Shown here: piece by piece, positions 29,401 to 54,900 of the stretch
How the letters are laid out: each line of letters starts with the position of its first letter
Numbering within the stretch: the first letter of the stretch is position 1
IMG/VR virus record: IMGVR_UViG_3300049846_000430
Location: 1-64,000 of that record
Length of the DNA stretch: 64,000 nt
From: a virus
Direction: 5' to 3' (one strand)
Notes under the pieces: generated by a model
What the model saw: the letters and a program-made list of their open reading frames with translations, nothing else
Told to the model about the DNA's origin: nothing
Database searches by the model: none
Translations under genes and position numbers: made by a program

Positions 29401-32400
29401 GTCAGTTGGATGGTATTAAACAAGTTCAGATGCGTGGATGCATTGAACTTGTTGAAACTAATAATCCATTAAAGAAATATACATCTCAAGCAATATTTTC
29501 TGGTGACACATATGTTGGTAGATATACAGAGAAGACTATCATGCCAATCTTTACAGATTTTCTGTATGGTCAACCTGATCAATATCCGTATGACTATCTG
29601 AAAAGAGTGAATATTCCTTATCCAAGATTTTGGATGGATACAAGAAAATATGATACATCTGCTTTAGCTAGAGCAATAATGGCTCCTGGTATATTGTTTG
29701 GTATTAATGGAACAACTATAAACAACTTATTACCTAATGATTTATTTTATTTGGATAGAGGTTCTGGAACATGTAGTATTTTTGATCAAATTGTAGATAA
29801 AGATGATCTTAACTCTGCATTTGCAATGCGTACAGCATATATGTACACACATTGCAGTGGTATTCAAGATTTTTATATTGAATCAGAAATAAACCTTGCA
29901 CAAAGAGATTGGGAAGATGATCCTAGATATAGACACTATGATCCATATGAGTACAACAATGTAGATGATCTGTTTAATGCTGCTATTATCAGAGATGGTA
30001 ATTTCTACAAGTATGACTACTCTTTAAGTATAAGCAGGTTCCTAACTAATTTTTCAAGCTTTGGTAACATGCAGATGAGGGACTATGATCCTTTAGTTGC
30101 AGAGAAATGTTACAGCTACTATCCTAAGAGATTGATATATTCTTTGCAGGCTCAGCTTGAAGCAAAGAAGGATTTCTGGAGAGTATTTCTGCCCAACAAT
30201 TATAAAGACTTTAAGAGTAAGGTTAATGTAATAAAACCAATCAACAAGAGTGGTGCTCTTATATTCTTCCCTTATTTGTCACCACAAATGTTCCAGGGTC
30301 TTGATACTCTTGAAACAGATCTTGGTACTAAACTTACTATTGGTGATGGTGGTCTATTTAGTCAACCATTCCAGAATGTTGCAAACTCAGATCTTCCAAA
30401 TGAATATGGTTCATGTGAAAGTTCAAGAAGTGTAATCAATACACCTTTTGGTTTATTCTTTATTTCACAAGCACAAGGTAAAGTATTCCAATACACCGGC
30501 AATCTTGTAAACATTGCTAATGCTGGAATGAAATGGTGGTTTAATAAGTACTTGCCATCTGTGCTTATAAGACAATTCCCAGAACTTGAAGATTCAAAAC
30601 TTTCAGATAACCCGGTTATTGGTATAGGATGTCAAGCAATATATGATATCAATGATGATATAGTTTACTTTACTAAGAAAGACTATGCTGTAAGAGAAGA
30701 GTATTTGAACATTATGTCCTATGATCCAGTAACACAAAAGTTTCTTTTGAATAGTACAACTGTAGTTCCTCTTGGTGATCCTCTTTTCTTTGAGAACTGT
30801 TCATGGACTGTATCATATGATCCTAAAGCAAATGCTTGGATATCATTCCATGATTGGCATCCTGATTTGGTTCTTCCTAGCATAAGACACTTCTTAACAG
30901 CAAAAACTCAAGCAACAAATGAACCTCAGTGTCCTCCTAACTACAATTATAATCCTGTTACAGGCAAATGTGAAAGAACACAGCAAATAACAGAGAAAGC
31001 CCCAGTGGTTGTTAATGAAGTAATTTCTCCTATTGTTGGTAGTCCTTCTGGATGTTTTATTGATATTGTTATAGCTGTTGATGTATCATTAAGTACTGGA
31101 GGTGCAAGTGCTCCAATTGGTCAAGCGGAAAGATTATTTGTAACAGAATTTATAAATCATCCTACTATACAAGCAGGAATGACTGCTGGTAAAATCCAAA
31201 TAGGATTTGTTACATATGCACAATCCGTTAATATATGGGCAGATCCACTTACAGGAATTACAATGAGTAATACTGTAACTGCTGTTGATGCTGATGCGTT
31301 TCTTGTTAGTAATTTTGCTTCTCCAGGTGCTGGGACAGATCTTATTGATGCAATGAATGATGCTCAGAATGTTTTAAATGCTAAGGGTAATTCTTCATTA
31401 GGAAGTAGAGTTGTTCAGCCAAGTTTTAAGCAACACATGATTGTTCTTACTGATCTTGATAATTCTCCTCCTATATTTGCGGGAGTTGGTTGTCAATATC
31501 AGTCAGTAACATTTGGACCTCCATGTACTGGAAACTATAGGCAGTTTGTAAGTGCTGTATATGTTGATGCAACTAATCCTGTTCCAACATCAACTATTCT
31601 TTCAGAAATTACTTGTGGTCAACCAAGTCTTGAGTATGGAATTGCGGGAAATAATCTTGGAGATGTAGAAAATATTGTAAATGATATTGCAAATTTTACA
31701 TGTGAACCAGGTGGATATTCTTGCTCATGTCCTGCTGGATATACACTTGTATATAAAGATCTTAATAAAAATACATATACCTCGCCAACTGGAGTTTGTC
31801 ATCCTGAGTATGAAAGACTGTGTAGAAAAGTGACATGCAATTGTCCACCACCTCCTTTCCCAGGATCTGTTACTACACAATCAGGTATATGTGATGATGT
31901 ATATTTAGTTGGTGATCCAAACTACGTCAATAACAATCCTGTAATATGCAAGTACTACACATTACAACAGACACCTCCAAGTTATACACTTGGCACATTG
32001 TGGAGACATAATGACCGTTGTGATTCTTATTCTAACTTCTATGGTATTTCTTATCCATGGGAAGTTGAATTTACAGAAACCACCGGTCAGAATGTAAATA
32101 CTCTAAGAAGTATTGAATATCAGTTGGAGTGTTATGTGTATAAGGGTGATCTTATAAATGAATGTGGTGATGATAGATGGCATGATCTGGATTGGAACTT
32201 TGATGAAGCCATTATATACAACACAGAACAAGTTTCAGGATTACTTAGACTTGAACTTAATCCTAAAGATGATCCCTTTGGTATGATGCAGTATCCTATC
32301 ATAGGTCCAAGTGATATCAGGATTCTTTTCTCTAAAGAAGAACAGAAGTACAGATTTAATCAGTTCTGGGATATTACTAAAGACCGTGGTGAATTTACAT

Positions 32401-32606
32401 CTGCACAAGACAGGATTTTCTTTACTCAACTTAACGGATATATACGTGATCTTAATGCAGCTAATATGAATTATCAGAAGCCTTCAGATCAACGTAAGAA
32501 GTTCAGACACTACTACAATAGAGTTATTCTTAGAAGACAAAACTCTGAGAATAGAAAAATGCTCCTTAAATTAGCAAACACAAAACTTAATCTTTCATTC
32601 AGATAA
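26454..32606 (+). CDS. Tail stabilisation / muzzle protein with inserted vWA and Cys-rich domains
   Basis: FIKGMVKD...WTHARN...GNEPSN N-terminus, GFMRDEQYAFFIRW, WTVSYDPKANAWISFHDWHP and LWRHN C-terminal motifs; DVSLS MIDAS insertion. Confidence 0.75.
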   Translation: MAENNFTNTSSIETNVFIKGMVKDPNASFVQKDNWTHARNTVNNSVDGDVAVIGNEPSNIQCASIPYPIIGAIHTYRDQWVIFATDDVNSEIGLFDDSECKYTTLINAPCLNFNRKHLITGAAKENFDCTWQVYWDDGNNPSRTLNIDRIPYIRFIVSPPGADCVEYADTTELDCEKIRLAPLLTTPCVKLTKAADGGQLRNGSFQAFIAYTVNGQRQTDYIGVSNVQSLFDHNDLAGSLHISVTNLDKEFDYYELVILSNNTQNTVAKRIGLYSTEQSDITIDYIDQSLVSVPLEVLPLRSPAYEKSEQMYTVNDWLIRSGPTEQFDFNYQPLANQIQTNWVVAEYPENYYYKGGNSTGFMRDEQYAFFIRWIYNTGERSSSYHIPGRGPRVVGQNQFGDFIDETAINVGQNSLSPDEYNFQVFNTATQTAGPLNIPTDDGGVIIAKGDMAYWESTERYPATRPDIWNANNNPAAPWATSGNPQHDLCGKPIRHHKMPSEETSPLLVIHNTTNKTIRILGVEFSNIALPRFNDGSIIPNIVGYELLRGSREGQKSILAKGIFRNMRAYTIPDAENDAIKLEGLYPNYPYNDLRADVYFHDGTGGKRTDKCENSFSSSKSNYPPITGFKQDVFTFHGPDLMFKRPFLSAYETRLYGALHGDAVGYFIKSENHPQNKLLRNGGVLLAAIIGIGYAISQIQGTRSETFDPATTAISSTTGTILGQTTGNIGPVGVNLPFAAGISTAAGIALNTLMNVPITGVNTFYLNPLTSDASKLPSLVDGNATNAAAFAVNINSHAQAGLTPGLIGGKYSLNYTYNSPTSSLPQLLKGVFSVAVLSITNIAIGAQEIIDLLYNLVAFSDFAYKHNSHGLYSEYAKTLDQNTIYRSKNTDSNYIGSSFQGFGASYKINNLFRPGTVAVETQNSFSIPEVFTGLPIKDISRYTIGGDATDDFGNTFMNDPGQKQKKKISALYGALKFGFENQYGQLDGIKQVQMRGCIELVETNNPLKKYTSQAIFSGDTYVGRYTEKTIMPIFTDFLYGQPDQYPYDYLKRVNIPYPRFWMDTRKYDTSALARAIMAPGILFGINGTTINNLLPNDLFYLDRGSGTCSIFDQIVDKDDLNSAFAMRTAYMYTHCSGIQDFYIESEINLAQRDWEDDPRYRHYDPYEYNNVDDLFNAAIIRDGNFYKYDYSLSISRFLTNFSSFGNMQMRDYDPLVAEKCYSYYPKRLIYSLQAQLEAKKDFWRVFLPNNYKDFKSKVNVIKPINKSGALIFFPYLSPQMFQGLDTLETDLGTKLTIGDGGLFSQPFQNVANSDLPNEYGSCESSRSVINTPFGLFFISQAQGKVFQYTGNLVNIANAGMKWWFNKYLPSVLIRQFPELEDSKLSDNPVIGIGCQAIYDINDDIVYFTKKDYAVREEYLNIMSYDPVTQKFLLNSTTVVPLGDPLFFENCSWTVSYDPKANAWISFHDWHPDLVLPSIRHFLTAKTQATNEPQCPPNYNYNPVTGKCERTQQITEKAPVVVNEVISPIVGSPSGCFIDIVIAVDVSLSTGGASAPIGQAERLFVTEFINHPTIQAGMTAGKIQIGFVTYAQSVNIWADPLTGITMSNTVTAVDADAFLVSNFASPGAGTDLIDAMNDAQNVLNAKGNSSLGSRVVQPSFKQHMIVLTDLDNSPPIFAGVGCQYQSVTFGPPCTGNYRQFVSAVYVDATNPVPTSTILSEITCGQPSLEYGIAGNNLGDVENIVNDIANFTCEPGGYSCSCPAGYTLVYKDLNKNTYTSPTGVCHPEYERLCRKVTCNCPPPPFPGSVTTQSGICDDVYLVGDPNYVNNNPVICKYYTLQQTPPSYTLGTLWRHNDRCDSYSNFYGISYPWEVEFTETTGQNVNTLRSIEYQLECYVYKGDLINECGDDRWHDLDWNFDEAIIYNTEQVSGLLRLELNPKDDPFGMMQYPIIGPSDIRILFSKEEQKYRFNQFWDITKDRGEFTSAQDRIFFTQLNGYIRDLNAANMNYQKPSDQRKKFRHYYNRVILRRQNSENRKMLLKLANTKLNLSFR

Positions 32607-32607
32607 T

Positions 32608-35190
32608 ATGCAAAAGTCTTTTAGATACTCTGACAGAAGAGGATTACCAGGTGGTCCAAATGAAGAATCCTCTTTTGGTGAGGGATTTATTGTCAGTGAA
32701 AGAGGTCAATGGGATTATCCGGGTATGAATACTCTGGTTCCTACAGATGGCAACATTACAATGCAGGGTGTTCCATATCCGGTAATGGCACAACCCGTAT
32801 ATCCAGATTGGGCACAGCCTGCTATTGGACCCGCAACAATGATGTATCCAGATCAAGATTATTATTTTCCTGGTGCAGTGGCTGTTGCAGAAACACCTAT
32901 GGCAAGATATGGTGGTGGGTTAAGAAAGTATCAAACTGGTAAAGAAGTTAATAATAATGCTGCAGTTAGCAATGGTAATCTTCCTTATGATCCTAATTGG
33001 CAAGATATCAAAACACTAGAGGAAATAAGGATTTCTCCTTATATGAGAATGAGGTCACAACTTGATACTCCTGAAGCAAGAGATCAATGGATAGATGAAA
33101 ATCTCCCAAAGTTCTCAAGATCAATGGGTATTAATAGAGATAACTGGAATCCAAATGAATGGGAAAAATATCAGAAGCACATAAACACAAAACTTGCAGA
33201 AGATATTTTTAAAAGAAAACCTTTTACTGCTGGTGATGGAAGTAGATTGGAGAATTTAAAAAGATATACACCTGAAGAACTGAATATCATTAAAGGATCT
33301 AGTTATGCGAATAAAATTGAACCTACTGTTTGGGAAAAATTTGAACAAGGTTTATTATCTATTGGTAATGTTGGAAGTCCTGTTAAGTTTAAAAATGAAA
33401 ATTTAACTCAAGAGGAAGCAAGACAAGAAAGTACTCCTTTAAATCTACTTCAACCACTTTCTATTCCACAAAAAATGGTTCAGGCTGGTTTTGAGAGAAT
33501 AAGACCTACTGTAACTGGGGGGTATACTATGTCAGAAGCTTTGTCTGGTGTGGAGAATGATGCACCAATGGCTGACAAATTTTATACAGATCCTCTCAAT
33601 TTTGTTGGTATGGGGTTATTTAAAGGTTTAGGTACAGGCTCAACAATAGGAAGAAATATTGGTAGATTTGGTGAAGCTGTAAATTATGTACCAGAAGATA
33701 TTGCAGGTTTTGCTAATATTGGATCTGATGCAGCAACCACTGCTTCAAAAATTAATCCTAAAGCCACACAGTTGACATTTGATTTTGGTCTTCCAAAAGC
33801 TCCTGTTAATGATGATCCATTTGGAGTTTACACTTCAGCTGAAAAATTAATTAATGATCTTCAGAAGATAAAAGAAACAGAAAAAAATGTTAAAAATCTA
33901 AGTGATTATGAAAACACAATACAGGAAGTTTTTGGAGGTCTTGAGGGTTATAAAAAAGCAAAAAATTTATATAAAGGGGATAATTCTGAATATTTAACAT
34001 TTGATCAACTTGTAGAAAAAATAAAAGGAAAAGCTTCTGAAAACATAAAGCAAAGTTCTTTAAATCTTCAAAAACCTATTACTTCTGAAAAAATAACTTA
34101 TCAGAAACCATTAAGTACTGATCAGGAGTATATTGATTGGGCAAATAAAATTCATCCAGATTTGGCCCGTATAGCTACACCAGAAGAACTTAGACAAGCT
34201 CATATTGAGGCCCTTGATTATTTTGGTAAAAGCCCTGTTGGACTTGAGGGTAAAGAATATGGAATGTATATGAGGAATAAATTTGCTGATAGAATTCCAT
34301 CATATACATATCCAACATCATATGATTTTGAAGGAAACATTTTACATTTTCCTCCTGATCATCCACATACTTCTTTTATGCCTTGGGGAACAGCTGAAAC
34401 CGCATCATTAAAACATGGCAATAGGTATACTACACTACTAGATGATATATTGAGAAATCAAGGTTATAGTACTCAATTTTTAACACCTCAAGAAGTAAAT
34501 GCAATTTATGGATATGCTAAAGGTTATGATGCACCAATAAACGGTGTATTAAGAGCTCAATCTGCTCAGTATAACCCTTCTTTATTAAATAGTCTTAATC
34601 TTTCTCTTAAAACTAAACCAGGATCTAAAACTGCTGAATTTTATGGTGACATTGCTGAGATGCTTAATCAAGGTATTCAAAGAAATAAACTAAGAAATCC
34701 AATCTCAGTTAAGAGAGGCATTGGTTCAGATTATAATGTTGAATTACTTCATCCTACAACTTTTGAACCTACTGGTCAAATAGTAAAAAGATCAGAACTC
34801 AATGTAGGAGATATTTTTAAAGATGCTTCATTTTTATCTTCAAGTCATCAAGGACCTCTTTATGAGTGGGGAACACCTGGACTTTCAGAATATATAGATT
34901 TACCAGGAGGAGGTATTCAATCATATGCATACCCAAATGCTTTATCTTGGTCTCCATTTTTAAATGAGTTTGAATTTATTTTGCCAAAAAATCTTGTACG
35001 TAGGGTAGAATTAATTACTGATAATCCAATGTCTGCTGGATACAAGTATAGAACTTCTATTTTAAATCCATATCAAATGGGAGGCACTGAAGATGAATCA
35101 GATGAACAATTTCCAATGGGTGCAATGAATGTAAACATACAAGATATACCTGATGATGTGCTTGCAATAATGATAGCCAATAACAGATAA
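32608..35190 (+). CDS. Putative ejected cargo protein with C-terminal ADP-ribosyltransferase domain
   Basis: AIYGYAKGYDAPINGVLR, VKRG (R), FLSSS (S) and NEFEFILP (ExE) motifs of the R-S-E ART clade; flanked by RYGGG and YQMGG motifs. Confidence 0.7.
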   Translation: MQKSFRYSDRRGLPGGPNEESSFGEGFIVSERGQWDYPGMNTLVPTDGNITMQGVPYPVMAQPVYPDWAQPAIGPATMMYPDQDYYFPGAVAVAETPMARYGGGLRKYQTGKEVNNNAAVSNGNLPYDPNWQDIKTLEEIRISPYMRMRSQLDTPEARDQWIDENLPKFSRSMGINRDNWNPNEWEKYQKHINTKLAEDIFKRKPFTAGDGSRLENLKRYTPEELNIIKGSSYANKIEPTVWEKFEQGLLSIGNVGSPVKFKNENLTQEEARQESTPLNLLQPLSIPQKMVQAGFERIRPTVTGGYTMSEALSGVENDAPMADKFYTDPLNFVGMGLFKGLGTGSTIGRNIGRFGEAVNYVPEDIAGFANIGSDAATTASKINPKATQLTFDFGLPKAPVNDDPFGVYTSAEKLINDLQKIKETEKNVKNLSDYENTIQEVFGGLEGYKKAKNLYKGDNSEYLTFDQLVEKIKGKASENIKQSSLNLQKPITSEKITYQKPLSTDQEYIDWANKIHPDLARIATPEELRQAHIEALDYFGKSPVGLEGKEYGMYMRNKFADRIPSYTYPTSYDFEGNILHFPPDHPHTSFMPWGTAETASLKHGNRYTTLLDDILRNQGYSTQFLTPQEVNAIYGYAKGYDAPINGVLRAQSAQYNPSLLNSLNLSLKTKPGSKTAEFYGDIAEMLNQGIQRNKLRNPISVKRGIGSDYNVELLHPTTFEPTGQIVKRSELNVGDIFKDASFLSSSHQGPLYEWGTPGLSEYIDLPGGGIQSYAYPNALSWSPFLNEFEFILPKNLVRRVELITDNPMSAGYKYRTSILNPYQMGGTEDESDEQFPMGAMNVNIQDIPDDVLAIMIANNR

Positions 35191-35191
35191 C

Positions 35192-38100
35192 ATGAACTGG
35201 AAAGAATTTACAATGAAGTATGGTGGTGGACTCACTAAGTATCAAAAGAGAGGTGAGTTCAATTGGAAGACATATAAGGATGTAGGCATACAGACTTTAC
35301 CAAGTAAATCTCAAATAGTTGCTGCTCAAGGACAACAAAGGGATAATGTCTATGTTAATCCTGTTGTAAAAAATGCAGCTCAGTTGCAAAGGATAAATCA
35401 AATAGAGGAAGAAGAAAGACAAAGAAGAATTCAAGAAACTGCAGATAGAGTGCGAGGCACACTAAGAGCAACTACTGATGCAGATATAGAAGCTCAAAAT
35501 AGAGAAGACTATACACTTACAGGAAGAGCAAGAAGTCTTGGTAGAGGAGATTTTAACCCTTTAGTTGTAGCAGCCAGTGCTGCAGATTTGATTAATCCTG
35601 CTTCCTATTGGTATGCCGGTAAAGATTTTGGAAGAGGTGTAAAACAAACTGGAGAAGGGATAGTTAATCTAGATCCAGAACAAATAGGTTCTGGATTATT
35701 ACAAACAGGATTAAGTGCTTTACAATTGTATCCCGGAGCATCTACTGCCAGATCTGTTATAAAAGGAGCTGCTCCACGTCTATTTGGTTCTACAATGTCC
35801 AGTCAAGCTAATGATTTTTTAAGATCTGTAAGATCAATGGATGACTTTGCTACTGGCTCGCCATCTGTTTATAGAACTCAGCCAGGATTAAGTTCAGGAC
35901 CAATAAGTTCAACACCTGCTATATCAAGAGTTGGTAGTACTTCTGGACAAGCATTTATCCCATCTGCAAAACAAACCGGTAAGTATTCTCCTAGTATTGT
36001 TAGTGATTTAAGCTCGTTTTTTGCTCCATTTAATCCTAAAAATTTACAAACAAATTCCGGATTAGAATGGATGAAGCAGTGGTATTCAGATCCTGATATT
36101 ATAAGAAGAACTGAAGGTAATTTTCCAAAAGGATTTTCAAAATTTTCAATTATAATGGATTCCGATAATATTGGATCTAAAGCTCTAAAACATTTTAAAA
36201 ATAAATTAAATGCATATGAACCAAAAAATTATATTGATTTATTGAAAGATCGTGGGTTAAAAAAATATCTTCAAGCAAGTATGGGAAGTAAAGGACTTTC
36301 TGCTGGCTATCCTTCAGGTATATATGTCAATAGGACAGCTGCATTTCCTTTTGACAAGAGAGGATTAGAATCTACCAGAGTACATGAATTAACTCATTTA
36401 ATAGAGCATAATGGTGCTATTTTTAATGATGATAACATTAAGTCATTACTAAAACCTTTTGGATATTCTTCCTTATCTGAAGTTCCTGAAAATAAAACTT
36501 TGAGTTTTATAGATAGAGAAATAAGGGGTATTAATCCTGAATATTATTTAGAGCCTAGTGAAATACATGCTAGAATGAATCAAGGAAGATTTAATTTTAA
36601 TCTTACACCAAAAGATCAATTTACCACTAAAATGTTTGATGAAATATCTAAAAAATATGATTGGTATGGAATGGGAAGATATATAAAAGATAAAGATGCT
36701 TTTATAGATTTAATGAATAATTTTTGGGCAATACCTGCAACAGTTGGTATTGGTGCCGGAGCTTATCAACAGTTTAATCAAAAACCTCAAGGAACTTATC
36801 AGTATGGTGGTCCTACTATAGATTTAAAGCTTCCTCAGTTTGAAGAAGATAAACCCAGACCTTTCTTTGAAATGAGTGGTGCTGGCACTGGACCACAATA
36901 TGATATGTTTGGTTATGGTTATATTCCTCTTGGTAAGAACTTAGGTATATCTGCAGATCTAATGAGATGGAAAGAAGGAGATTGGCGTGGTGGTAGATAT
37001 GGTATAAGCGGAAACATAAACATTCCAATTAACAGAGGTGAGAGAAGAACACGTCCGGATATGAAAGATCCAGTAATGTATCAATATGGAGGAGCATCAA
37101 GAGCTGATACTTTAAATCTTTTAGCAAATACTAGAGCAGTTCGGAATTATTATACGGGAAGGGACTATACACCTGATGTAAATTATACTGGACGTAACTT
37201 GGTAAGCCCGTCAACATCAATGTATAAAAATATATGGGAGGCTTTAAAAGCAGATAGAAGTGGTTTTATAGCTACCAATGCTGCATATGGTATTGTAACA
37301 CCCTCAGGTCAAAGAAAATTAAGTATGAGTGATTACTATAGACCAATTGACCGTAATAAATTTTATCAAAGGGAAGATCAAAATCTTATTTTAGATACTA
37401 GAGCTCCAATGCAACTTTATGATAAGAGAATTGAACCTACTGGTGTATTGGGATATACTAATATAAAACCAAGTGATCCTATGTCATCAGATATAATTCA
37501 TTTTTATACTTATGATCCTATATCTATTACACCTTGGGATATGCTTAGTACAAAACAGAAAAAGCAAAGGATTAATAAGTATGGTGTTTCTGGCACTCCT
37601 TATGAAAGTAAGCAAGACTTTATAGAAAAGACATCTGATCAAGAAGTTATTAGAAAACAAAAACTTCTCAAAGAAGCTGGCTTATATAAAGGGGAAATTG
37701 ATGGTGACTGGGGAACCGGTTCTGAGAAAGCTTGGAAAAAGTATATGGAATTAAATACAATTCCAACAACTACAAATACTTCAAACACCATATCAGAGAC
37801 TCAAGTAATTCCCAGCACCCCAAGATTTAATATTCAAGGTATTATAGCAGATCAATATGTTCCAGATGCAAAAGATCAAACATCTAGAGAATATAGATAT
37901 AGGATAAATACTGATAAAGGTTTTGATGTAATTAAAAGCAAAAAAGATTTTGAAGAATGGAAACAAAGAAATGCAGCAGAGTATCAACCTTATTATCAAA
38001 GATCAACAAATGCTCCTATAGACTATAATAAAGGAAGAATACAAGAATATCTAGAAACACCCACCCTAATGTATACTGGAGATGGTACAAGAAGAAGTGG

Positions 38101-39244
38101 CGGTGAATCATCATATCAGTATGGAGGTGGTTTTTTACCTACAAGATATACTTCTAATCCTTATGATCCTGCAATAAAAAATTTCAATGATAGTTTAAAT
38201 TTATACAAAGGATATGTAATGCAGGATTATTTGATGGGTCCAAAAAATGAAAGAATATCTCCTGGAACTCGTATATCTTGGACACCAGCAGAATTAAAAA
38301 AGGATAGAACTAAAAAGTGGAATCCAGTTTTAAAACAAAAGATTGCTGATGATTTTCAAAATCAAGAAGAAATGTTTGCATCTGATTTTGTAAATGAAAA
38401 TAATAAAAAACTAGTAAGATACTATAAATCTCTTGGATTTACAGATGATAATATAATGTATCATACATCTGCAGATCTAGTTCATCCTACAATTAGAGCA
38501 ATAGGTACTTACATGGATGGTTCAGCATTAAGTCCTATTTATAAAAAACCAGTTCAACCTGTAAAATATGCTGATCCAAAAGTGGTAGAAAAACAAAAAA
38601 TACTTAAAGATGCGGGGCTTTACACAGGAGAATTAGATGGCGTGTGGGGGAGTGGTTCTAAAAAAGCGTGGGAAGAATATACAAAAAGAAATACTACTCC
38701 TAGATCATTAGATGGGATGACTGAAGTTACATATCCTACTTCTACTATGATAGAAACTACAAAGTTAGATCCTAACGGCAATCCTGTAACAGAAATACAT
38801 TATTATGATGATCTTAGAACCAGAGAAAGAAAAGATCCAAAAGTTCAGAAATATTTAGTACAGACATATAATCAAATGTCCACACCATATAAGAAGGCAG
38901 CTGTTGCAAAATATGGTGATCCTAGCAAAGTTCCTTTTCAGGGTGTAAACATATATGAATTAAATCCTAATCCTTATATGAAAGAAGAAGGAGGTGAAAC
39001 AAATCTGTTTAACTGGAACAATTTAGATCAATGGTTTAAGAATGGTGGTGAGTCAGACTTTGTAAATAACATTTACAGTGATTACATGGATGGTGTTTAT
39101 GATGGTACACCTTTGGAAGAGAATGCCAAGAAAGTGTATGATAAATTAAACACTATATACTATAGGCAAGCAAAGGAATCAGGTATGACTCCACCAAACT
39201 ACATTATGACCAATGTAATTAAAAAAGCTTTGAAACCTTCATAA
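35192..39244 (+). CDS. Putative ejected polyvalent cargo protein: zincin metallopeptidase plus two peptidoglycan-binding modules
   Basis: HELTH (36383) with downstream EIHAR (36560); two QKxLKxAGLYxGExDGxWGxGSxKAW repeats (37658, 38594); modules separated by YQYGG. Confidence 0.7.
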   Translation: MNWKEFTMKYGGGLTKYQKRGEFNWKTYKDVGIQTLPSKSQIVAAQGQQRDNVYVNPVVKNAAQLQRINQIEEEERQRRIQETADRVRGTLRATTDADIEAQNREDYTLTGRARSLGRGDFNPLVVAASAADLINPASYWYAGKDFGRGVKQTGEGIVNLDPEQIGSGLLQTGLSALQLYPGASTARSVIKGAAPRLFGSTMSSQANDFLRSVRSMDDFATGSPSVYRTQPGLSSGPISSTPAISRVGSTSGQAFIPSAKQTGKYSPSIVSDLSSFFAPFNPKNLQTNSGLEWMKQWYSDPDIIRRTEGNFPKGFSKFSIIMDSDNIGSKALKHFKNKLNAYEPKNYIDLLKDRGLKKYLQASMGSKGLSAGYPSGIYVNRTAAFPFDKRGLESTRVHELTHLIEHNGAIFNDDNIKSLLKPFGYSSLSEVPENKTLSFIDREIRGINPEYYLEPSEIHARMNQGRFNFNLTPKDQFTTKMFDEISKKYDWYGMGRYIKDKDAFIDLMNNFWAIPATVGIGAGAYQQFNQKPQGTYQYGGPTIDLKLPQFEEDKPRPFFEMSGAGTGPQYDMFGYGYIPLGKNLGISADLMRWKEGDWRGGRYGISGNINIPINRGERRTRPDMKDPVMYQYGGASRADTLNLLANTRAVRNYYTGRDYTPDVNYTGRNLVSPSTSMYKNIWEALKADRSGFIATNAAYGIVTPSGQRKLSMSDYYRPIDRNKFYQREDQNLILDTRAPMQLYDKRIEPTGVLGYTNIKPSDPMSSDIIHFYTYDPISITPWDMLSTKQKKQRINKYGVSGTPYESKQDFIEKTSDQEVIRKQKLLKEAGLYKGEIDGDWGTGSEKAWKKYMELNTIPTTTNTSNTISETQVIPSTPRFNIQGIIADQYVPDAKDQTSREYRYRINTDKGFDVIKSKKDFEEWKQRNAAEYQPYYQRSTNAPIDYNKGRIQEYLETPTLMYTGDGTRRSGGESSYQYGGGFLPTRYTSNPYDPAIKNFNDSLNLYKGYVMQDYLMGPKNERISPGTRISWTPAELKKDRTKKWNPVLKQKIADDFQNQEEMFASDFVNENNKKLVRYYKSLGFTDDNIMYHTSADLVHPTIRAIGTYMDGSALSPIYKKPVQPVKYADPKVVEKQKILKDAGLYTGELDGVWGSGSKKAWEEYTKRNTTPRSLDGMTEVTYPTSTMIETTKLDPNGNPVTEIHYYDDLRTRERKDPKVQKYLVQTYNQMSTPYKKAAVAKYGDPSKVPFQGVNIYELNPNPYMKEEGGETNLFNWNNLDQWFKNGGESDFVNNIYSDYMDGVYDGTPLEENAKKVYDKLNTIYYRQAKESGMTPPNYIMTNVIKKALKPS

Positions 39245-39265
39245 TTAGCTTATTTGATGTTTAAT

Positions 39266-39275
39266 TTGTATATTA
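39266..39275 (+). promoter_or_regulatory. Putative late promoter motif TTGTATATTA
   Basis: Intergenic, 10 nt upstream of ATG 39286. Confidence 0.55.
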
Positions 39276-39285
39276 GTATTATACT

Positions 39286-42200
39286 ATGGCCAGCAAAAGA
39301 TTAAGTAAAAAATACTATCAGACAGGGGGTGACACATCTCCTGCACCTGATATTCATCCCGACATGATTGAGATTGTTCAGGCTGTTGAGGCTTCTCTTC
39401 AATCTGGACTTGCTCCTCAAGAAGTTGTATTGCATCTTGCTGGTCAGGGGTATAGAGAAGATGAAATAAGTTTTGCTTTTGAGCAAATGGGTTATGATCC
39501 TGCTGCCATTGCTACAATAATGCAAGCTGCAGAAGCAATGTATAACCAACAGTCTCAGCAGCAAATGCAACCAGGTATGGAACCCGGAATGGAACCTGGT
39601 ATGGAGCAACCTATGGAACCTGGAATGGAAGGTCCTATGCCTCCAGTAACGGAAGCTGAGATGCAAGCTCAAATGGCTCAGGCTGCTTCACCACAATCAA
39701 ATGTGGGTAGCATGGAAGATGAAGGTATTTCAAAAGAAGAACTTGCTACAGCTTTACAAAGAGCTGCTTCTAAAGCTTTAGCTAGAAGAGGTAGAGAAAT
39801 GCAATATGGTGGTTTGCTTCTTCCTGGTGAACATGCTTATGATCCTGTTGCTACTGTGAGTCAGGAAATGGGTAAGAGATTTTACTATCCATATGTTCCC
39901 GGTCCTGGAGATTTAGGAGGTGCATTGTCTACTGCTGTTGGTTCTATTGGAAATTTGTTTTCAGGACGTGTTGGTGCAGATGGTTTACAAGAAGGAACTT
40001 TCAGAGACCTTGGTGCAAAAAGTGCAAGGTTTCAAAGATCTAAACCAATGCAGTATACTTACAATGTTAAATTAGATCCTAATGACAAGAATCAGTATGC
40101 TGCAGATATGGAAGATATGTATGCTGCTTCTAGAGGAGAAGGCAAGTTGAGAACTAAAGAACAGTATCAACAAGATGTAAATAAGTATTCAAGAACTAAT
40201 TTTAATACAGATACTGGCAAGTATGATGTTCTTTATACTAGCAGAGAATTTGACCCAAGTCTTTTAGGAAATAAACAGGTTGATCCTTATGAAGGATTTA
40301 GAAAGAAGAGTATTTCATTTGCTGATTGGAAAAGAAGAATGGATCCTGAGACTCTCAGCCTTCTTAGAGAAAATGAAATAAATGCACCAAAAGGAACAAC
40401 TATAGGTATATCTCCACAAGGTTCACCAACATCATATATTTCTGGCAAAGAGAATCCATACTGGTATAATACTATGATGGGATTAAACACACTCAAATCA
40501 AATCAACATGGAAATATGAGGGTGTCAGGTTATATGAAAGCAGAGGGTGGTCCTTTTAATGAAACTGAATATACACCCATTGATCCAGAACCAAAACGTG
40601 TGTTAAGTGGAATTCCTTATAAGGAGGAAGATTATGAATTTGCAGATCCAATAAGAAGAAGAGAATTAAGAGCTTATAAAAAGTATCAAAGGCTTCCTGA
40701 AGATCAAAAGACTAATCCTTTTTATAGAACACATGATGTAAAGCGTTCCGGTCTTAAAAGATACTGGGAAGATATTCCTGATATTGATTATAATAAAGCT
40801 CTTCAAGGAACTACATTTGGTCAGTTTATTAGTAGAGCCAATTCTTTAAAAAGTAGGGGGGATCAGTTTGGTAATATATATGAAACAGGACCTCATCCTA
40901 TAGAAACTGGATATATGCCAAGAAACATTTGGACATCACCAACTACTGGTATTTCATTATATCCTGATGATGATCCAAACAATATACTTAAGCAAATGGA
41001 TGACGCATCAGCTGATAATTTTAAACCATATATTTATTTTTTACAACCAGATGATCAAACTGTTTTACCAGCAAATGTTGGATATCAAACTATTGTAGGA
41101 GGATCTGGAGCAATAAAAGGTCCTGAGAATTTAAAAAATCAAGATAAAAATCTTATTGATATAATGGGTTTTGGAAGTGAGGATATTCCAGCTGATAAAT
41201 ATCAAAAAACATTTGGTTATAATACTGATCTTATAAGAGTAACTACACCGCAAAGAAATAAAATTGCTGGAGTTACAGCAATTGATAAAGATGTTAATGA
41301 TTATCTTCATAAGATATATCAACAATATCAAAATGAAGATTTAAGCAAACTGTCAAAAGAAGAACGTGATGATGTAAAGTTAAAAAGAGAAGCTGAGGTT
41401 AAAAAATATCTTTTAGAGAAAGCGGGTCTTGATCCTGCACAGTATATGAGTACACTCATGCACTATAACTACACATCTCCTGAAATATATTCTGACATCA
41501 ACAGACCAGGCTTTACAGTTTTTGATCAGTATGGTGATGTGTATGATAAAAGAAAAAGAGACATGCCAGAGTTTATGAAAAGAATGAACACTAAAAAGTA
41601 TGGTGGTTATCTTCGTAAAGCTCAATTTGGTTATGAAAGTATGGGTGATAGAATGGATATGTTTGGAGTTGAAACTTCAGATCCAAAGATGTATTCTTCT
41701 GCAATAGCTTATGGTAAAGTAGATCCCCCAGATTTTTCAGGTTATGCACCAAGAGGCGTATACAGTTCTGCAATTCCTAATTCAGGTCTTTCACCTGTAG
41801 GTATGGTTAATATTCCAACAAGAAGAACGCCTGCCACTAGCTCAGTTCCTACAACTACTCCTTCTATTTCACCAGGTGTTGCTGTTTCTACTCCAAAACC
41901 AACGGATGAGATTAGCTCTGTAACAGCACCTACTGCAAGAGAAGCTTATGAGCCCATGAAGCCAAAAGAAAAAAGTGTAATAGTTCCGTCTGATGGTAAA
42001 ACATCTAAATCTTCAGCAGCCTCATTAAATCCTTTAGCTAAACCAGTTGATGTATCTAGATCAGTATCTGGCACAAGTGAGCTATATGACCCATTTGGTG
42101 TACCTACAGAGTTTGATAATCCTAAAATGACATCATCAGCTTTAGCTCTTGGTAAAACAACTGGTACTACAACAACTACACCAGCATCTCAACCAGAGGT

Positions 42201-42597
42201 AACAAAAAAGCTTAATCCTGAACAGTGGTTAAATAGACAACTCCAAAGACCGGGTATAAAAGCTTATGGTGATGTATCAAAAGCTGTTGTTGATACAGCT
42301 AACTTTGTAAACGAAGCATTTAAAGAAAGAGAACGTGCAGCATATGATAGCAGACTTAGAGAGATGACTGCAGCAGATAATGTATATGGTATTATCTTTG
42401 ATAATGAAAGAGGGGACTGGGATCCTAATTCAGGATTATTAAAAGTTGATAAATACGTACCTTATAGGATGCCTGACCAATTTAGACCTATAGCTGGAAG
42501 AGTTAAGTTTGGTGGTCAGAAAGATGATGTCTTTAATGTAGACATGAAAACACTTACACAATTAATTGCAGCTGGTGCTGATATTGAGATATTATAA
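39286..42597 (+). CDS. Putative ejected cargo protein (modular, low-complexity linkers)
   Basis: 1103 aa; five xxxGG motifs, M/Q/P/E-rich and P/S/T-rich linkers; C-terminal LIAAGADIEIL. Confidence 0.65.
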   Translation: MASKRLSKKYYQTGGDTSPAPDIHPDMIEIVQAVEASLQSGLAPQEVVLHLAGQGYREDEISFAFEQMGYDPAAIATIMQAAEAMYNQQSQQQMQPGMEPGMEPGMEQPMEPGMEGPMPPVTEAEMQAQMAQAASPQSNVGSMEDEGISKEELATALQRAASKALARRGREMQYGGLLLPGEHAYDPVATVSQEMGKRFYYPYVPGPGDLGGALSTAVGSIGNLFSGRVGADGLQEGTFRDLGAKSARFQRSKPMQYTYNVKLDPNDKNQYAADMEDMYAASRGEGKLRTKEQYQQDVNKYSRTNFNTDTGKYDVLYTSREFDPSLLGNKQVDPYEGFRKKSISFADWKRRMDPETLSLLRENEINAPKGTTIGISPQGSPTSYISGKENPYWYNTMMGLNTLKSNQHGNMRVSGYMKAEGGPFNETEYTPIDPEPKRVLSGIPYKEEDYEFADPIRRRELRAYKKYQRLPEDQKTNPFYRTHDVKRSGLKRYWEDIPDIDYNKALQGTTFGQFISRANSLKSRGDQFGNIYETGPHPIETGYMPRNIWTSPTTGISLYPDDDPNNILKQMDDASADNFKPYIYFLQPDDQTVLPANVGYQTIVGGSGAIKGPENLKNQDKNLIDIMGFGSEDIPADKYQKTFGYNTDLIRVTTPQRNKIAGVTAIDKDVNDYLHKIYQQYQNEDLSKLSKEERDDVKLKREAEVKKYLLEKAGLDPAQYMSTLMHYNYTSPEIYSDINRPGFTVFDQYGDVYDKRKRDMPEFMKRMNTKKYGGYLRKAQFGYESMGDRMDMFGVETSDPKMYSSAIAYGKVDPPDFSGYAPRGVYSSAIPNSGLSPVGMVNIPTRRTPATSSVPTTTPSISPGVAVSTPKPTDEISSVTAPTAREAYEPMKPKEKSVIVPSDGKTSKSSAASLNPLAKPVDVSRSVSGTSELYDPFGVPTEFDNPKMTSSALALGKTTGTTTTTPASQPEVTKKLNPEQWLNRQLQRPGIKAYGDVSKAVVDTANFVNEAFKERERAAYDSRLREMTAADNVYGIIFDNERGDWDPNSGLLKVDKYVPYRMPDQFRPIAGRVKFGGQKDDVFNVDMKTLTQLIAAGADIEIL
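39565..39639 (+). repeat. 12-bp coding tandem repeat (MEPG)n
   Basis: MQPGMEPGMEPGMEQPMEPGMEGPM. Confidence 0.8.
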
Positions 42598-48944: not shown

Positions 48945-51900
48945 ATGGAATTAAACAATAACATGATTCCGGTTGCTCCGGACAATATGCCTTCAGCTGA
49001 TCAGCAACTAAATGGCAACCCTTATGTGATTGATGCTGCTCCTGGTACCGACCCTTCTGAAAATTTTAACTTCCAACCTGTAAGTGATTTTTTTGAATCT
49101 CCTACAAATAGTGATCTTGTTATTGGTGTTGATGAAGATTATCTCAACATGCTAAGACCTCTTAGCACATCAGTAAACAAATATATTAATCCTCCCAATG
49201 GCAATTTAAGGAATCCTTATCCTACTTACGCCAGTGACACATATAACCCCTATTCTCAACAGAGAGGTCTTAATCTATCAACTAGAGAAGGAAGACTTGC
49301 TGCATTAAAAAATCCAGGAGCAACAGCTGAAATATTTACTCCCGGTGGGCCAGCACAACCTGAAATAGCTGATCCTGTTTATTCATCTATAAGAGATACA
49401 AACTTTGATAGATACTATGCTCACCCAAAGTTTGAAGAACTTGGTTGGCAACCATATGCCAATAATGAGGAATACTATAATGCCAACTCATCTACATGGG
49501 ATGATTCTGTTAGAATGTGGGGTCAGTTTAGTGGATTATTTGGTACTGGTTTTGTAAGTGGTTACCGTTCTATTGCTGATCTTTTTGATGGTGATGACTA
49601 TTTATCAACTGCTGACTTAGATAGTGCTACAGAATTCTCAGATGCAATGAGAATAGGTATGTCATCAAGAGAAGGTTTTATGGCAGGAATTAATAATTTT
49701 GCACTTAACTCTGCTTATACCTTCGGTATTATTGGCAGCATAGCAGCAGAAGAACTTGCTTTAGCTCTTATGGCTTCAACAGGTGTTGGTGCAATTCCGG
49801 CAGCTGCAAGAACAGGTGCAAATGTGACAAGAGCTGGAAGAGCTATAGTAAATTTCTTTGATGTAGGTAAAGCATTAAATGCCACAAGACAAATGCTTAA
49901 AGGTCTTAATCAAGCTGATAGAGCAAGAGACTTTTATAACACAATGAGATCTGGTGGTAAGTTTGTTGGTGATTTCTTTTTACCTGAAACTATGGCCGCA
50001 ATCAGATCTATGAACACAACACAAAATGGTGTTCAAAATCTTTCAAATTTATCTAAAGCTGCAAGAGGATTTGGTGGTTTCTATAGAGATTTAAGAGGTA
50101 TTAATCTTGCCATGTCTGAATCTAAGCTTGAGGCAGGTATGGTGTATAATGATAAGTTTGCTGATATATCCGCAAATCTTAATGAAAAGAATGGTGGTAC
50201 AGGATTAACTCCCACTGATGTTGCTAAAGCACATGATGTTGCAGCTAAATCATCATTTGCCACTCTATGGTGGAATGCTCCATTAATTTACCTGAGTAAT
50301 AAGATTGTTCTTGGTACTGCACTTGGCGGTATGAATAAAACTCTGGGAAGAGTATTTGATGAAAAACTTACAGGCTTTGGTAAAAGACTAATTAGAACTA
50401 AACCATTAACTGATGCTAGTGGTAAGATATCAAGAGATGTTTTTGAAGATGCTGGTGAAGGAATGTTTGGTGGTCTTTTACCATCAATGAAAAGAATTAA
50501 AGGATACACTGTTGGTGGATCTCTTAAAGCAGCAGGACATGGTGCCGCAAGATACTTTGCTGCAAACTTAACTGAAGGTGCTCAAGAACTTGCACAAGAA
50601 GCTATTGCTGTTGGTACTAAAGATTACTATACTCAATTGTTTGAAGATCCTGCAGCTGCCGGTTATGATGTATTTAAAACAGCATTGAGTTCTGCAATAA
50701 GTAGTCAAATGAATGCTCAAGGTTTTGAAACATTCATGTCTGGATTTATGATGGGTGGTGTAGTACAAGGTCCTCAGAAACTATTGTTTCAGGGACTGCC
50801 TAATGCTATGCAGTATACCTTTAATAGAGAGGCATATGATAAATACAAAACTGCTAAGAATGATTACATTCAGAACCTTGTAAAGACTCATAATGAAGCA
50901 TGGAATACTATGGCTGATGATCCAACAGCAATGTTTGATCCTACTAAACTAAACTTCCTGGTTCAGAAACAAGTGGCTTCAGAGATGAAGCAGTCTGCAT
51001 ATGTAGATGATGTTTTTGGTTTTATTGATGCAAAAGACTTTGGTAAGTTTAATCAGATGTATACCATTTTTAGCAATGGTACAGCAAATCAATTTAAAGA
51101 TCAACTTCAAGGATTTCAATCATTAACTGATGAAGAACTTAACCAAGCATTTCCTGGATTTAAAGCTGACATCAAGAGTGGAAAGTTTAGAGAAAGAATA
51201 GACACTACTCTTAATCAAATTGATGAAACTGAAAAAGCTTATAATGATGCTCAAAATAAATTTCAAAATCCTTTTGATAGTAGAAAATTCAAAAAGGGTA
51301 CAAAAGAGTTTATAGATGAAGCATTGAAAGAAAGAGCTTTTGAACATGCCAAGTATCTTTACATGTTTACACAGGATGGCTTTAAAAGAGCTGTTGAAAG
51401 AGCAGAAAGTATTTACAGTGAAATGGCATCTGAACCGGTAATTTCAAAGATTGCCGCTAATGATCTATCTGTTCTTATGGATATAGATAGTATTAATAAT
51501 GAGTTAGCTGTACTTTTAAAAGAAGCATCAATTGAAGCAACAACTCCAGAAGAAGAAAAAATTGCTGCTGATAAGACTGAAAGGATGATGCATTTAACTG
51601 AAATCAAAAAAGTTCTTACAGATCCCGGCAACCTAAACTCTAATGGTATTCTTGATAGAAGAAAGATTAATAAGCTTTACAAACCATTTCAGAATTATGT
51701 AAACTTCTTGGCTAAGAGTAAGAATGACTTTGTGAATAAGGATGCTGTTGTAAATGCCCTTAAGAAAATCTCTGATTATAACGCACTTAAAGAGAGAGCT
51801 AAAGTTTATGATAAAGCTATTGAGTATCTGAATAATCCAGAAAGACTTACTGAAATGGTTAATAGAACCAGAGCCATTTTTGAAGACTTATTCCGGAACA

Positions 51901-54900
51901 ATAAAACAATGTTTGAAAAGAACATTAAGAAGCATGTTAAAAATCTTGAAGCAAATGAATTCTTAAACAAGCTTGTTAAGATTGGTGTATATCCAAATGC
52001 TGATCAAGTTGTTGAGTTCTTAAAAACAGGTGATGTAAATGTGTTAAAAGAATTCTTTTCTGAAGACGGGGTTGTAGATGTCATGAATGATCCCAAAAGA
52101 TTTCTTCAAATTGCAGGTCTTGTCAGAAGTTATAATGAAATAACTGGTAAAGAAGAGGTAAAAGAAGAGACAGAAGAAGAACCTGAAGAAGAAGCAGCTG
52201 AACCAGGAGCTAAACAAAAAAGCTTTGAAGATACATTAGATGATCTAGATATAGATACTAGCAGCATGCCTGGTGTTAAACCAAAACCAGCAAAAGAAAC
52301 AGTAGTTGAAACCAATGATCCAAGTCAATCTCCTTATGGTAAAAAGATTCTTGAGGAGGTATACAATAAATATAGAGCTGAGCAGCTTGCTATTGGTAAT
52401 ACATACTTGCCATATAATGAATGGGCCAAGACTGAAAAAACTCAAACTGTAATTGCAGCACTTCAAGCACTTAAGGTAGCATGGGCAAAGACTGTTACTA
52501 AAGAATCTCTAGCTAAACGTGGTACTGATGTTTCAACTCCTCAACTTGCAGAAGCTGCAATTAAGTTTGTAATAAAGCAGGATGTTGGATTTTCTCAATG
52601 GCTGCAGTCAAAGAAAGATGAACCATCAGTTAGAAAAGTTCTTGATGAAGCAGGTCTAACATTTGATGCGTTGGCACCAGTTGCACCGGGTAAAAATGAA
52701 GGTAAAGATTCTGTTGTTAAAGATAAGAAGAATACCAAGTGGCACAAGAAAGGTCCGGGTGTAAATATTCTTAAAATTACTAGTAGTGATAATGAGGGTA
52801 ATAAAACTACTTATTATCAGTTGGTAGATAATAATGGTGATGGTCTTTCAGAAGCAATACTAAAAGCTGCCGGTGTATCAATAAACGGTACTTATAGTAA
52901 AGCTAAAGCTGCAGAAGAAGCTCAGAAAAAGATTCTTGATGCTATGCCTGATACTACACCATTTCAATTTGATGGTGTAATGGTAAGATTTGGTGCCACT
53001 GTTACAGATAATAAAGGTAAAGAGTTTATTGTTCTTGGCACACCATCTAAAGTTGCAAAAGGTGGCAAGTTGTTTCTTTTACCAAAAGAGAAACAAACTT
53101 TAAAAGGAGTTAAAGAAAGAGAAAAAGCCTCAATAAAAGTTTCAGAAGGTGAGTTTAATGGATTCTATACTGTAGAAGATCTTAAGTTTAGTGAGCCAGT
53201 TGACAAAAATGTAAGTAAGCTCACTGTTGTTGATCTTCTTAAAAGCTATCCCCGTAACAATAGAGGTGAAGAAAGGGCTGAAGCTCAAAAAAGATTTGAT
53301 ATCATTATGAATGCTGTTACAGCAGAAGAATTTGAAAATGATATTGAATTTGTTGTTAGAAGAAATGAGGGTGCTGGTTCAGAAACAGGTCCATATAGAG
53401 CTGGTAGTAAAGAGCCTAACCCACAAATAATAAAGACAACTGAGACATACAACATTGGAATAAGAATTGGTAATCCAGCATTACAACAAAGACTGGATGC
53501 AATGCTTGAAGAAAAAGGATTTGTTCCTAGTGATTCTGCTGATGGTATCATTGGTTTCATGCCTAATAACTCATATAAACTTCTTGATAAAAATGGCAAG
53601 CAAATCAGTATTTTATCTCTTGATCCAGAAAACTTTGATCAATACTTTGGTGGAAGAGGTACTCTTCAAGACATAAAGACTGCCTATGCTACACAGCAAC
53701 TTCTTGTGAATGCTATCTCAGAACTAATAGGTGAGGCTAGTTTTGCAGTTGTAAAACCTTCTGAGTTAAAAGACAAGGTAACTTTTAGTTTCCAAAGTTT
53801 ATACAAGCAAGATGCATTACCAATATCACTAGATCAGCTTAATGATTATTACGGTACTGAAGATGGCAAAGGTTACACTGTTGATGGTAAGAATGTAATC
53901 ATATATGATAACAAAAGAGTTAGAACAGAAAAAGGATATAGTTATAGCACAACAGTTGTAAGTAATTTAAAACCTGGTAAAAGACTCAGTGATCTATCTG
54001 ACAAGATTGAAGATGAACTAAAAGCTTCAGGTAAATGGGAAAAAGCAACTGACCCAGTGGCAGGTCTTGGCCGTTATGTTATTGTAATAAGACAACCCAA
54101 TGGTGAACTTACTCTTGCTCAGCTTAAACAAAACAAGATAGATAAAGAAGAAGTATATGGATTTATTAAAGAACTTGTGCAAAGAGCTCAGGATACAGTT
54201 GACAATAACATTGAAAATATTGATGATCTTCCAAGAAATGCTTTAGGGGTTATAACAAATACCAAAGATGCTAGAGCTAAGAATCTGGATTATAATTATA
54301 AATGGAATGAAGAATTTAACAACAAGTTTTATCTGGCTGAGATGCCCGGTATAGATGTTGAAATGAAAGTAACAGCTTGGGGAAGAATTGAAATTTCATT
54401 TTATGACAAAAAAAATAAAGAATCATTAACTGCCGCTCCTCTGAAAATATTCCCAGAGCTATTTGCAAAAGCACTTGCAGATCCTCAAGAACTTTTAGAT
54501 AAGATTCAGAGTCTTTTAGATTCGGATCCAACCCTTAAGAAACAAAAAATTTCTGTTCAACCTCAAAACTTTAGAGCATCATTTCCTGAAAGCAGAGATG
54601 CTCAAGTAATTATTGATAATACAAAAACTCAACTTGATCCTAGAGTAAGATTTGATTATAAGATTATTGTTACAGGTGATTCAAGTCAAGTTCAAGCATT
54701 GGCTAACATCTCTACTCCAATTACTCCAGAAGATATTACTGCTGCTCAAGGACCAGTTTCTGAAGATACATTAGAACATATTGCTAAAAAGCTTAATACT
54801 CCTGGTTCTACACTTTCTAAGTATGAACAAGAGATCTATAACATCAATCAATCTAGAATTGAAAAGATAAGAAAAGATCTTGCCGGTAAATCAAGTCTTG

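Follow-up and report, generated by a model that had tools for sequence, protein, structure and literature searches.

A predicted R-S-ExE ADP-ribosyltransferase domain in an exchangeable cassette of a probable crassvirus-type cargo protein

Phage particles are established carriers of ADP-ribosyltransferases (ARTs), as exemplified by T4 Alt, the MuF-toxin fusions (PMC5576092) and polyvalent proteins (PMC5512222; PMC9503650). Alt, an ART of the R-S-E clade, is made late, is carried in the particle and acts on host proteins at the start of infection (PMC5512222). In the MuF polymorphic toxins and polyvalent proteins, a conserved part that serves virion incorporation is fused to variable effectors, ARTs included (PMC5576092; PMC5512222), and ARTs of the R-S-E clade were reported by Iyer et al. 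in 2017 to be absent from genuine polyvalent proteins (PMC5512222). In phage crAss001, the gene order is gp44 (muzzle), gp45 (cargo protein 1), gp46 (cargo protein 2) and gp47; mass spectrometry of virions detected gp45 to gp50, and portions of gp45 were observed in the capsid as well as in the tail (PMC10172136). Here we analyzed P0001, a cargo-type protein of 860 amino acids (aa) with a predicted ART cassette, which is encoded by an uncultured, distant crAss-like virus. Its gene lies at 32608-35190 of the window, i.e., the stretch of 64,000 nucleotides (nt) that was analyzed (positions 1 to 64,000 of IMG/VR record IMGVR_UViG_3300049846_000430), and is supported by the open reading frame (ORF) list, its translation and homologues. 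The record is 113.4 kb long and is rated 97% complete; all genes, domains and motifs of the window given below lie on the + strand.

Crassviruses rank among the most abundant known phages. Structural work on crAss001 reportedly revealed megadaltons of stored cargo protein, and RNA polymerase is, to our knowledge, the only enzymatic activity so far attributed to crassvirus cargo. A full-text search of the literature found no paper describing an ART in Crassvirales cargo. Virion-packaged phage ARTs are already known; the novelty here is that a cargo protein of the crassvirus type carries an R-S-ExE ART as a cassette. We propose, with a probability of roughly 0.6, that P0001 is a packaged and ejected cargo protein whose ART modifies one or more host proteins, either for host takeover or against host defence.

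The ADP-ribosyltransferase domain of P0001

By predicted fold and by motifs, aa ~605-821 of P0001 (34420-35070) is a mono-ART domain of the C3/VIP2 type with an R-S-ExE active site, an assignment that draws on Pfam, a profile search of the PDB, AlphaFold2 (AF2) modeling, Foldseek and VIA-align. The Pfam family PF03496 (ADPrib_exo_Tox), which has a curated cut-off of 23.4 bits, matched aa 623-805 with 24.5 bits and the domain alone with 28.1 bits. No other Pfam family matched P0001 at E<=1, and the only PHROGs match, at 0.077, was to an unknown family. For a broader view of the domain we used alignment A1, which has 48 rows and for which an exhaustive search supplied 47 cluster representatives with the ART domain. 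PF03496 was matched by 40 of these 48 relatives (best value 7e-17). A single-sequence search of the PDB gave no match, and solved ARTs were reached only with the A1 profile, which matched Certhrax (1.9e-7), Lmo0066 (1.6e-6) and C3stau (1.8e-5), as well as C3larvin, Plx2A, CdtA and iota Ia, and which aligned its R, STS, PN-loop and ExE columns with those of the solved enzymes.

The AF2 model of aa 591-830 had a mean predicted local distance difference test score (pLDDT) of 84.9 and a predicted TM-score of 0.83. With this model Foldseek recovered Plx2A, C3bot, Certhrax, Lmo0066, Vis and VIP2 at E values of about 1e-8. VIA-align gave Z scores of 14-16 over 170-179 aligned residues, with a root-mean-square deviation of ~3 Å and with model residues 16-230 covered; its best 50 entries were all ARTs of the C3, iota, CDTa, VIP2 or Certhrax type. 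The model and its VIA-align superpositions show an ART fold with an N-terminal helical subdomain. Thus the ART-like fold proposed in the initial annotation was recovered alike by profile, AF2, Foldseek and VIA-align.

The catalytic residues occur in the order R703, S744 and E787-x-E789, with spacings of 41 and 43 residues. R703 (codon at 34714-34716), the strand-1 arginine of NAD binding, is invariant in 48 of 48 rows and aligns with the catalytic arginines of both Certhrax and Lmo0066. The S-T-S motif takes the form S744-S-S (34837-34845); S744 is invariant, and the middle residue, which is T in more than 90% of the relatives, is S in P0001. This is a conservative change, the first serine being the invariant one. 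The ExE of the ADP-ribosylating toxin turn-turn (ARTT) loop is E787-F-E789 (34966-34974), which is preceded at -3 by the aromatic F784; both glutamates are invariant in 48 of 48 rows and were aligned by the profile to the catalytic QxE/ExE of C3stau. Besides these residues, K694, F742, P766 (PN loop), L792 and P793 are invariant throughout A1, and the Y..G.D..IN motif of the Y..IN..LR helix, T745, N820, P821 and Y822 are nearly so. This conservation of the active site spans relatives down to ~27% identity, and the R-S-ExE arrangement noted at the outset is intact in P0001 and shared by its 48 relatives. Together with the PF03496 scores above the cut-off, the invariance of R, S, E and E sets the domain apart from a chance resemblance.

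An aromatic-x-x-E-x-E ARTT loop goes with arginine rather than asparagine targets, as in iota, C2 and VIP2 versus C3. By this analogy, arginine is most likely the residue that P0001 would modify in its substrates.

The peptides from which the domain was first recognized all lie in frame 1 of ORF 32608-35190, starting at 34492 (EVNAIYGY, aa 629), 34708 (VKRG), 34831 (FLSSS) and 34963 (NEFEFIL), with YQMGG at 35071-35085. The codons of S744, E787 and E789 start at 34837, 34966 and 34972, respectively. One position needed correction, as VKRG had been placed at 34711, which is its K codon. The claim that the ART ends immediately before YQMGG held: the last ART strand, TSILN (aa 814-818), stops four residues before Y822 and is followed by P-Y-Q-M-G-G, so the module ends just before this motif.

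The exchangeable cassette and its junctions

Comparison of nine orthologues revealed at least four unrelated middle parts, and the ART was present in just three of the nine. The sister contig L017 has the same gene order, and its P0001 orthologue, P0006, lacks the ART. At the DNA level, window positions 31728-32933 are 91.7% identical to L017, up to the codons for ...ARYGGGL(R/T)KYQ; 32934-35073 has no DNA identity with L017 and constitutes the variable cassette; and identity resumes at 82% over 35074-35941, beginning at the Q of YQMGG. The homology breakpoints thus fall at KYQ|TG and |QMGG. The sharpness of these breakpoints, together with the orthologue without ART, argues that the module is swappable and that YQMGG is its right junction. 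On these comparisons the predicted ART sits in an exchangeable cassette, both borders of which coincide with GG-motif peptides, which bears out the earlier description of a swappable module: the same gene in L017 has a different middle between flanks of 92% (left) and 82% (right) DNA identity. The GC content of the cassette (32-33%, versus 34-38% in its flanks) shows no sign of recent foreign origin.

The YQMGG motif (35071-35085) has Q823, G825 and G826 invariant in the nine orthologues. A single YxxGG within P0001 is statistically unremarkable, being reached in 87 of 300 shuffled sequences. The weight of the motif comes instead from its conservation in nine orthologues with different middles and from the confinement of YQxGG to cargo genes, since all five occurrences in the six-frame translation of the window fall in three adjacent cargo ORFs. 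Among the 48 ART modules, NPY is nearly invariant at the end; about half continue as Y-[KQ]-x-G-G, which in many cases is repeated a few residues on, and the others continue with a Gly/Ala-rich hydrophobic stretch. Furthermore, crAss001 gp45 contains several aromatic-x-x-GG motifs.

The gene that follows P0001 is again related to L017, with 98.8% DNA identity over 36779-40415, beginning six codons before its first YQYGG. The ORFs after the ART gene (window 35192-42597 versus L017:3931-11288) are also mosaic, with blocks of 82-99% identity alternating with unrelated stretches. For the cassette of L017 (L017:1443-3929), ESM-Atlas offered a GNAT acetyltransferase at P0006 aa ~640-790, with a score of 0.80 and TM values by row of 0.5-0.57; neither Pfam nor a PDB profile confirmed this lead.

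Gene neighborhood and cargo relatives of P0001

Matches to PHROGs of the crAss type were found for the terminase (3664), portal (5859) and major capsid protein (10075). The portal was closest to that of Leptolyngbya phage Lbo-JY46 (33% identity), followed by Cellulophaga phages phi17:2 and phi4:1 (26%) and gut crAss-like phages (22-25%). Together with homologues of the muzzle and the virion RNA polymerase, these matches confirmed the original placement of the virus among crAss-like phages.

The gene upstream of P0001 (26454-32606) encodes a weak homologue of the crAss001 muzzle, gp44. This ORF of 2050 aa, labeled virion structural protein in PHROGs, was collinear with gp44 in BLASTP (E 2e-6), with aa 17-253 matching 9-242 and aa 1321-1434 matching 1122-1228. 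In L001-L014 and L022 the muzzle is split into a gene of 1575-1881 aa (truncated by the start of L022) plus one of ~288 aa, the latter corresponding to the last ~200 aa of the undivided muzzle ORF in the window. The P0001 gene starts 2 nt past the muzzle stop and so occupies the slot of gp45, and the next gene starts 2 nt past the P0001 stop; this spacing suggests that P0001 is co-expressed with the structural genes. The next cargo-slot ORF (35192-39244) encodes a mosaic protein of 1350 aa with a peptidoglycan-binding or lysin-like stretch and three YQYGG motifs. The cargo block is closed by a giant ORF of more than 5018 aa (48945-63998), which in BLASTP matched crAss001 gp50 (E 4e-13, aa 3924-3990) and gp47 (E 6e-6, aa 2160-2345) and was identified on this basis as a fused gp47-like/gp50-like virion RNA polymerase; in crAss001, gp47 and gp50 of the virion RNA polymerase are encoded separately. 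The sole Pfam match in this ORF was DUF7831, close to where the window ends; no zincin or RNA polymerase family matched.

The 25 nt upstream of 28 start codons were A/T-rich and had almost no Shine-Dalgarno motifs (4 weak matches among the 28). Such near-absence is usual in Bacteroidota and their phages, and on this ground a Bacteroidota host is plausible. A scan of genome contigs with alignment A2 returned pattern matches and zero confirmed relatives, and so gave no clue to the host.

The ART is the single enzymatic domain that we recognized in P0001, with aa 111-620 poorly modeled (pLDDT 56 overall; helices and disorder, as reported for the crAss001 cargo). The N-terminal module (aa 1-110, 32608-32937) is near-invariant and ends in ARYGGGLRKYQTG, the left junction of the variable part; aa 1-~105 are almost identical in the nine orthologues. 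In 14 of 14 related IMG/VR contigs, the gene with this module (aa ~27-105) comes immediately after the muzzle gene. The segment at aa 26-105 (GQWDYPGMNTLVPTDGNITMQGVPYPV...), for which we obtained neither a family nor a fold, recurs in the interior or close to the C-terminus of other large phage proteins (P0012, P0022, P0029, P0051 and P0053), some of which end in DUF6321. Domain B (aa 137-350, 33016-33657) is common to ~50 phage proteins at 40-50% identity and has a helical core in the AF2 model (pLDDT 75-89). It is followed by a variable helical or disordered linker (aa 351-604, 33658-34419; pLDDT mostly <60), which is common only to P0002, P0003 and P0052. The acidic C-terminal tail (aa 822-860, 35071-35187; 8 D/E versus 1 K/R), which ends in IPDDVLAIMIANNR, is conserved in the orthologues: whatever the middle, its last 14 residues are invariant in all nine.

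Three relatives link the ART to other virion domains. P0093 (1807 aa), pinpointed by phmmer --max and the only ART relative with the portal-binding domain crAss_CARG1 (PF25725), is a bridge that combines domain B, the ART and this domain in one chain: aa 111-285 are 41% identical to domain B of P0001 (E 1.5e-28), aa 436-592 resemble the ART, and aa 1169-1305 resemble the CARG1 domain of gp45 (E 4e-16 to gp45; 3.4e-21 in Pfam). P0094 carries a phage tail lysozyme together with an ART of the P0001 type, and a gene for 2141 aa that follows the split muzzle gene of L022 (L022:5130-11555, JACCDQ011026320.1) has a P0001-type ART at aa 352-540. The protein of 2141 aa also contains a stretch like aa 700-803 of the ORF at 35192 and, at aa 1918-2005, the N-terminal module of P0001. 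Because P0001 occupies the gp45 slot and P0093 connects its domains to a crassvirus cargo domain, we infer that P0001 is packaged in the virion and ejected into the host.

Compared with crAss001 gp45, P0001 stands in the same position, immediately behind the muzzle gene and ahead of the virion RNA polymerase, is of similar size (860 versus 842 aa), is likewise helical or disordered and shares the aromatic-x-x-GG motifs; it differs in that gp45 has no enzyme domain.

Proposed action of P0001, alternatives and known systems

In the mechanism that we propose, P0001 would be made late alongside the virion proteins and would reside in the particle among the cargo (ejection) proteins, with its constant N-terminal module and acidic tail presumably serving incorporation and ejection. 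At infection it would leave through the tail by extrusion, either together with the DNA or before it, and would refold in the host cytoplasm. There the ART may spend host NAD+ to mono-ADP-ribosylate at least one host protein, most likely on arginine, and the modification could disable or redirect a host function for takeover or anti-defence. Since the phage brings its own RNA polymerase, the shutdown or redirection of host machinery and the disarming of a defence protein would both be reasonable aims. Both the ADP-ribosyl transfer activity of P0001 and the existence of a host target are features that we infer.

Several observations weigh against this proposal. BLASTP found no similarity between P0001 and crAss001 gp45, and a search of the full 113-kb genome for crAss_CARG1 gave no match at E<=10. 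P0001 has no transmembrane helix, its best 19-residue Kyte-Doolittle mean being 0.88 versus 1.73 in gp45. Altogether, these three results indicate that P0001 is not a strict orthologue of cargo protein 1. A homologue search with gp45 returned only copies of 96-100% identity, which were of no use for a profile. With regard to the enzyme, the whole-protein PF03496 score is just 1 bit over the cut-off, S-S-S stands where the relatives mostly have S-T-S, and ExE enzymes that act on small molecules or nucleic acids exist. Finally, tblastn against 50,697 deposited phage records returned nothing for the whole of P0001 and no match to the domain at E<=1; by this measure, the ART subfamily of P0001 has no BLAST-detectable member in these genomes.

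Among the alternatives we considered an active ART whose substrate is not a host protein but a nucleic acid or small molecule, or which acts mainly as an NADase. Such an enzyme would, e.g., blunt a defence that depends on NAD+ or on an ADP-ribose signal, or mark the DNA or RNA of phage or host. The fold neighbors of P0001 include the Vis toxin, which was crystallized with agmatine, Lmo0066, an ART toxin that acts between bacteria, was its best structural match, and pierisin and ScARP are enzymes of the R-S-E clade that modify guanine. However, those of the closest solved relatives whose targets are known (C3, iota, CDTa, C2I, VIP2 and Certhrax) all modify proteins, and the aromatic-x-x-E-x-E of the ARTT loop is a protein-arginine signature; we therefore regard a non-protein substrate as unlikely.

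It is improbable, in our estimate, that P0001 is virion-associated with an ART that acts in the producer cell or particle, where it would target late host functions or proteins of the phage, such as the capsid, the virion RNA polymerase and further cargo. The gene is indeed late and structural, and we found no Macro or ARH eraser in the genome, other types of immunity not being excluded. If neither an eraser nor an immunity protein is encoded, the enzyme would be free to act once folded in the producer cell. Constant ends around a middle that is swapped among near-identical phages are nevertheless a better fit to a host-directed, fast-evolving effector than to a housekeeping enzyme that modifies conserved phage proteins, and the sister phage L017 has no ART at all. 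A catalytically dead relic, filler or structural or binding module of the cargo protein, for which the marginal Pfam score and the S-S-S motif might speak, is very improbable, because the R, S, E, E, PN-loop proline and Y..IN..LR helix are invariant or nearly so over 48 sequences down to ~27% identity, which indicates purifying selection on the active site.

With an intact toxin-type ART in its cargo slot, this phage offers a concrete candidate, open to assay, for an injected effector of the crass type. Its exchange between near-identical phages at sharp junction motifs suggests that the cargo is a platform for rapidly exchanged takeover or anti-defence modules, and crAss-like cargo proteins may, more generally, carry swappable effectors. 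More tentatively, and with more doubt than confidence, we suggest that the large muzzle-to-RNA-polymerase genes of crAss-like phages could form a polymorphic effector-delivery system, in which constant ends that act as packaging/ejection signals and short [aromatic]-Q/K-x-GG junction peptides would frame exchangeable effector cassettes, the ART being one of them and the unconfirmed GNAT-like cassette of the sister phage perhaps another, and the GG junctions would double as sites of proteolytic effector release within the particle or the host.

The comparison with T4 Alt holds in part. The two have a common fold (an Aeromonas phage Alt in BFVD was matched by Foldseek at E 1.6e-6), and the structural neighbors of the ART model in BFVD were minor capsid/MuF-ART fusions and Alt. 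However, Alt ranked 27th there, below MuF and VIP2-like entries. The label "Alt-like" of the initial annotation therefore stands as a functional analogy with a shared fold, but not as close kinship, because the ART has no BLAST-level similarity to any deposited phage. Furthermore, Alt is a myovirus head protein with capsid targeting and processing of its own, whereas the ART of P0001 would be a cassette within a tail/capsid cargo protein of the crassvirus type. In contrast to the MuF toxins, P0001 has no MuF domain (Pfam, E<=1), its variable part is internal between two constant ends, and no immunity gene is adjacent, the next gene, 2 nt after the stop, encoding the cargo protein of 1350 aa. 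In polyvalent proteins, as described by Iyer et al., a single virion-associated polypeptide holds at least two domains with disparate biochemical activities; among the P0001 relatives, domains are combined in the protein with lysozyme plus ART (P0094) and in that of 2141 aa (L022). P0001 and its relatives would extend the R-S-E (Alt/VIP2) clade to multidomain virion proteins, where the 2017 survey reported none.

With the toxins of the C3, Certhrax, Plx2A, Lmo0066, iota, CDTa, C2I and VIP2 group, the predicted domain shares the fold (Z 14-16), the Y..IN..LR helix, R, STS, the PN loop and the ExE of the ARTT loop. It differs from them in sequence (14-20% identity), in having neither a secretion signal nor a recognizable B-component adaptor upstream (a region that is helical with low confidence in AF2), and in its delivery, since the phage would eject it into a bacterium rather than into eukaryotic cells. 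Finally, polymorphic toxins have junction motifs such as VENN in CdiA and PxxxxDPxGL in Rhs. As in those systems, a short conserved peptide stands in P0001 at the exact border between the conserved part and the exchangeable toxin domain (KYQ|TG and |QMGG); the P0001 motif differs from theirs in sequence, flanks its cassette on both sides and recurs within the neighboring cargo genes.

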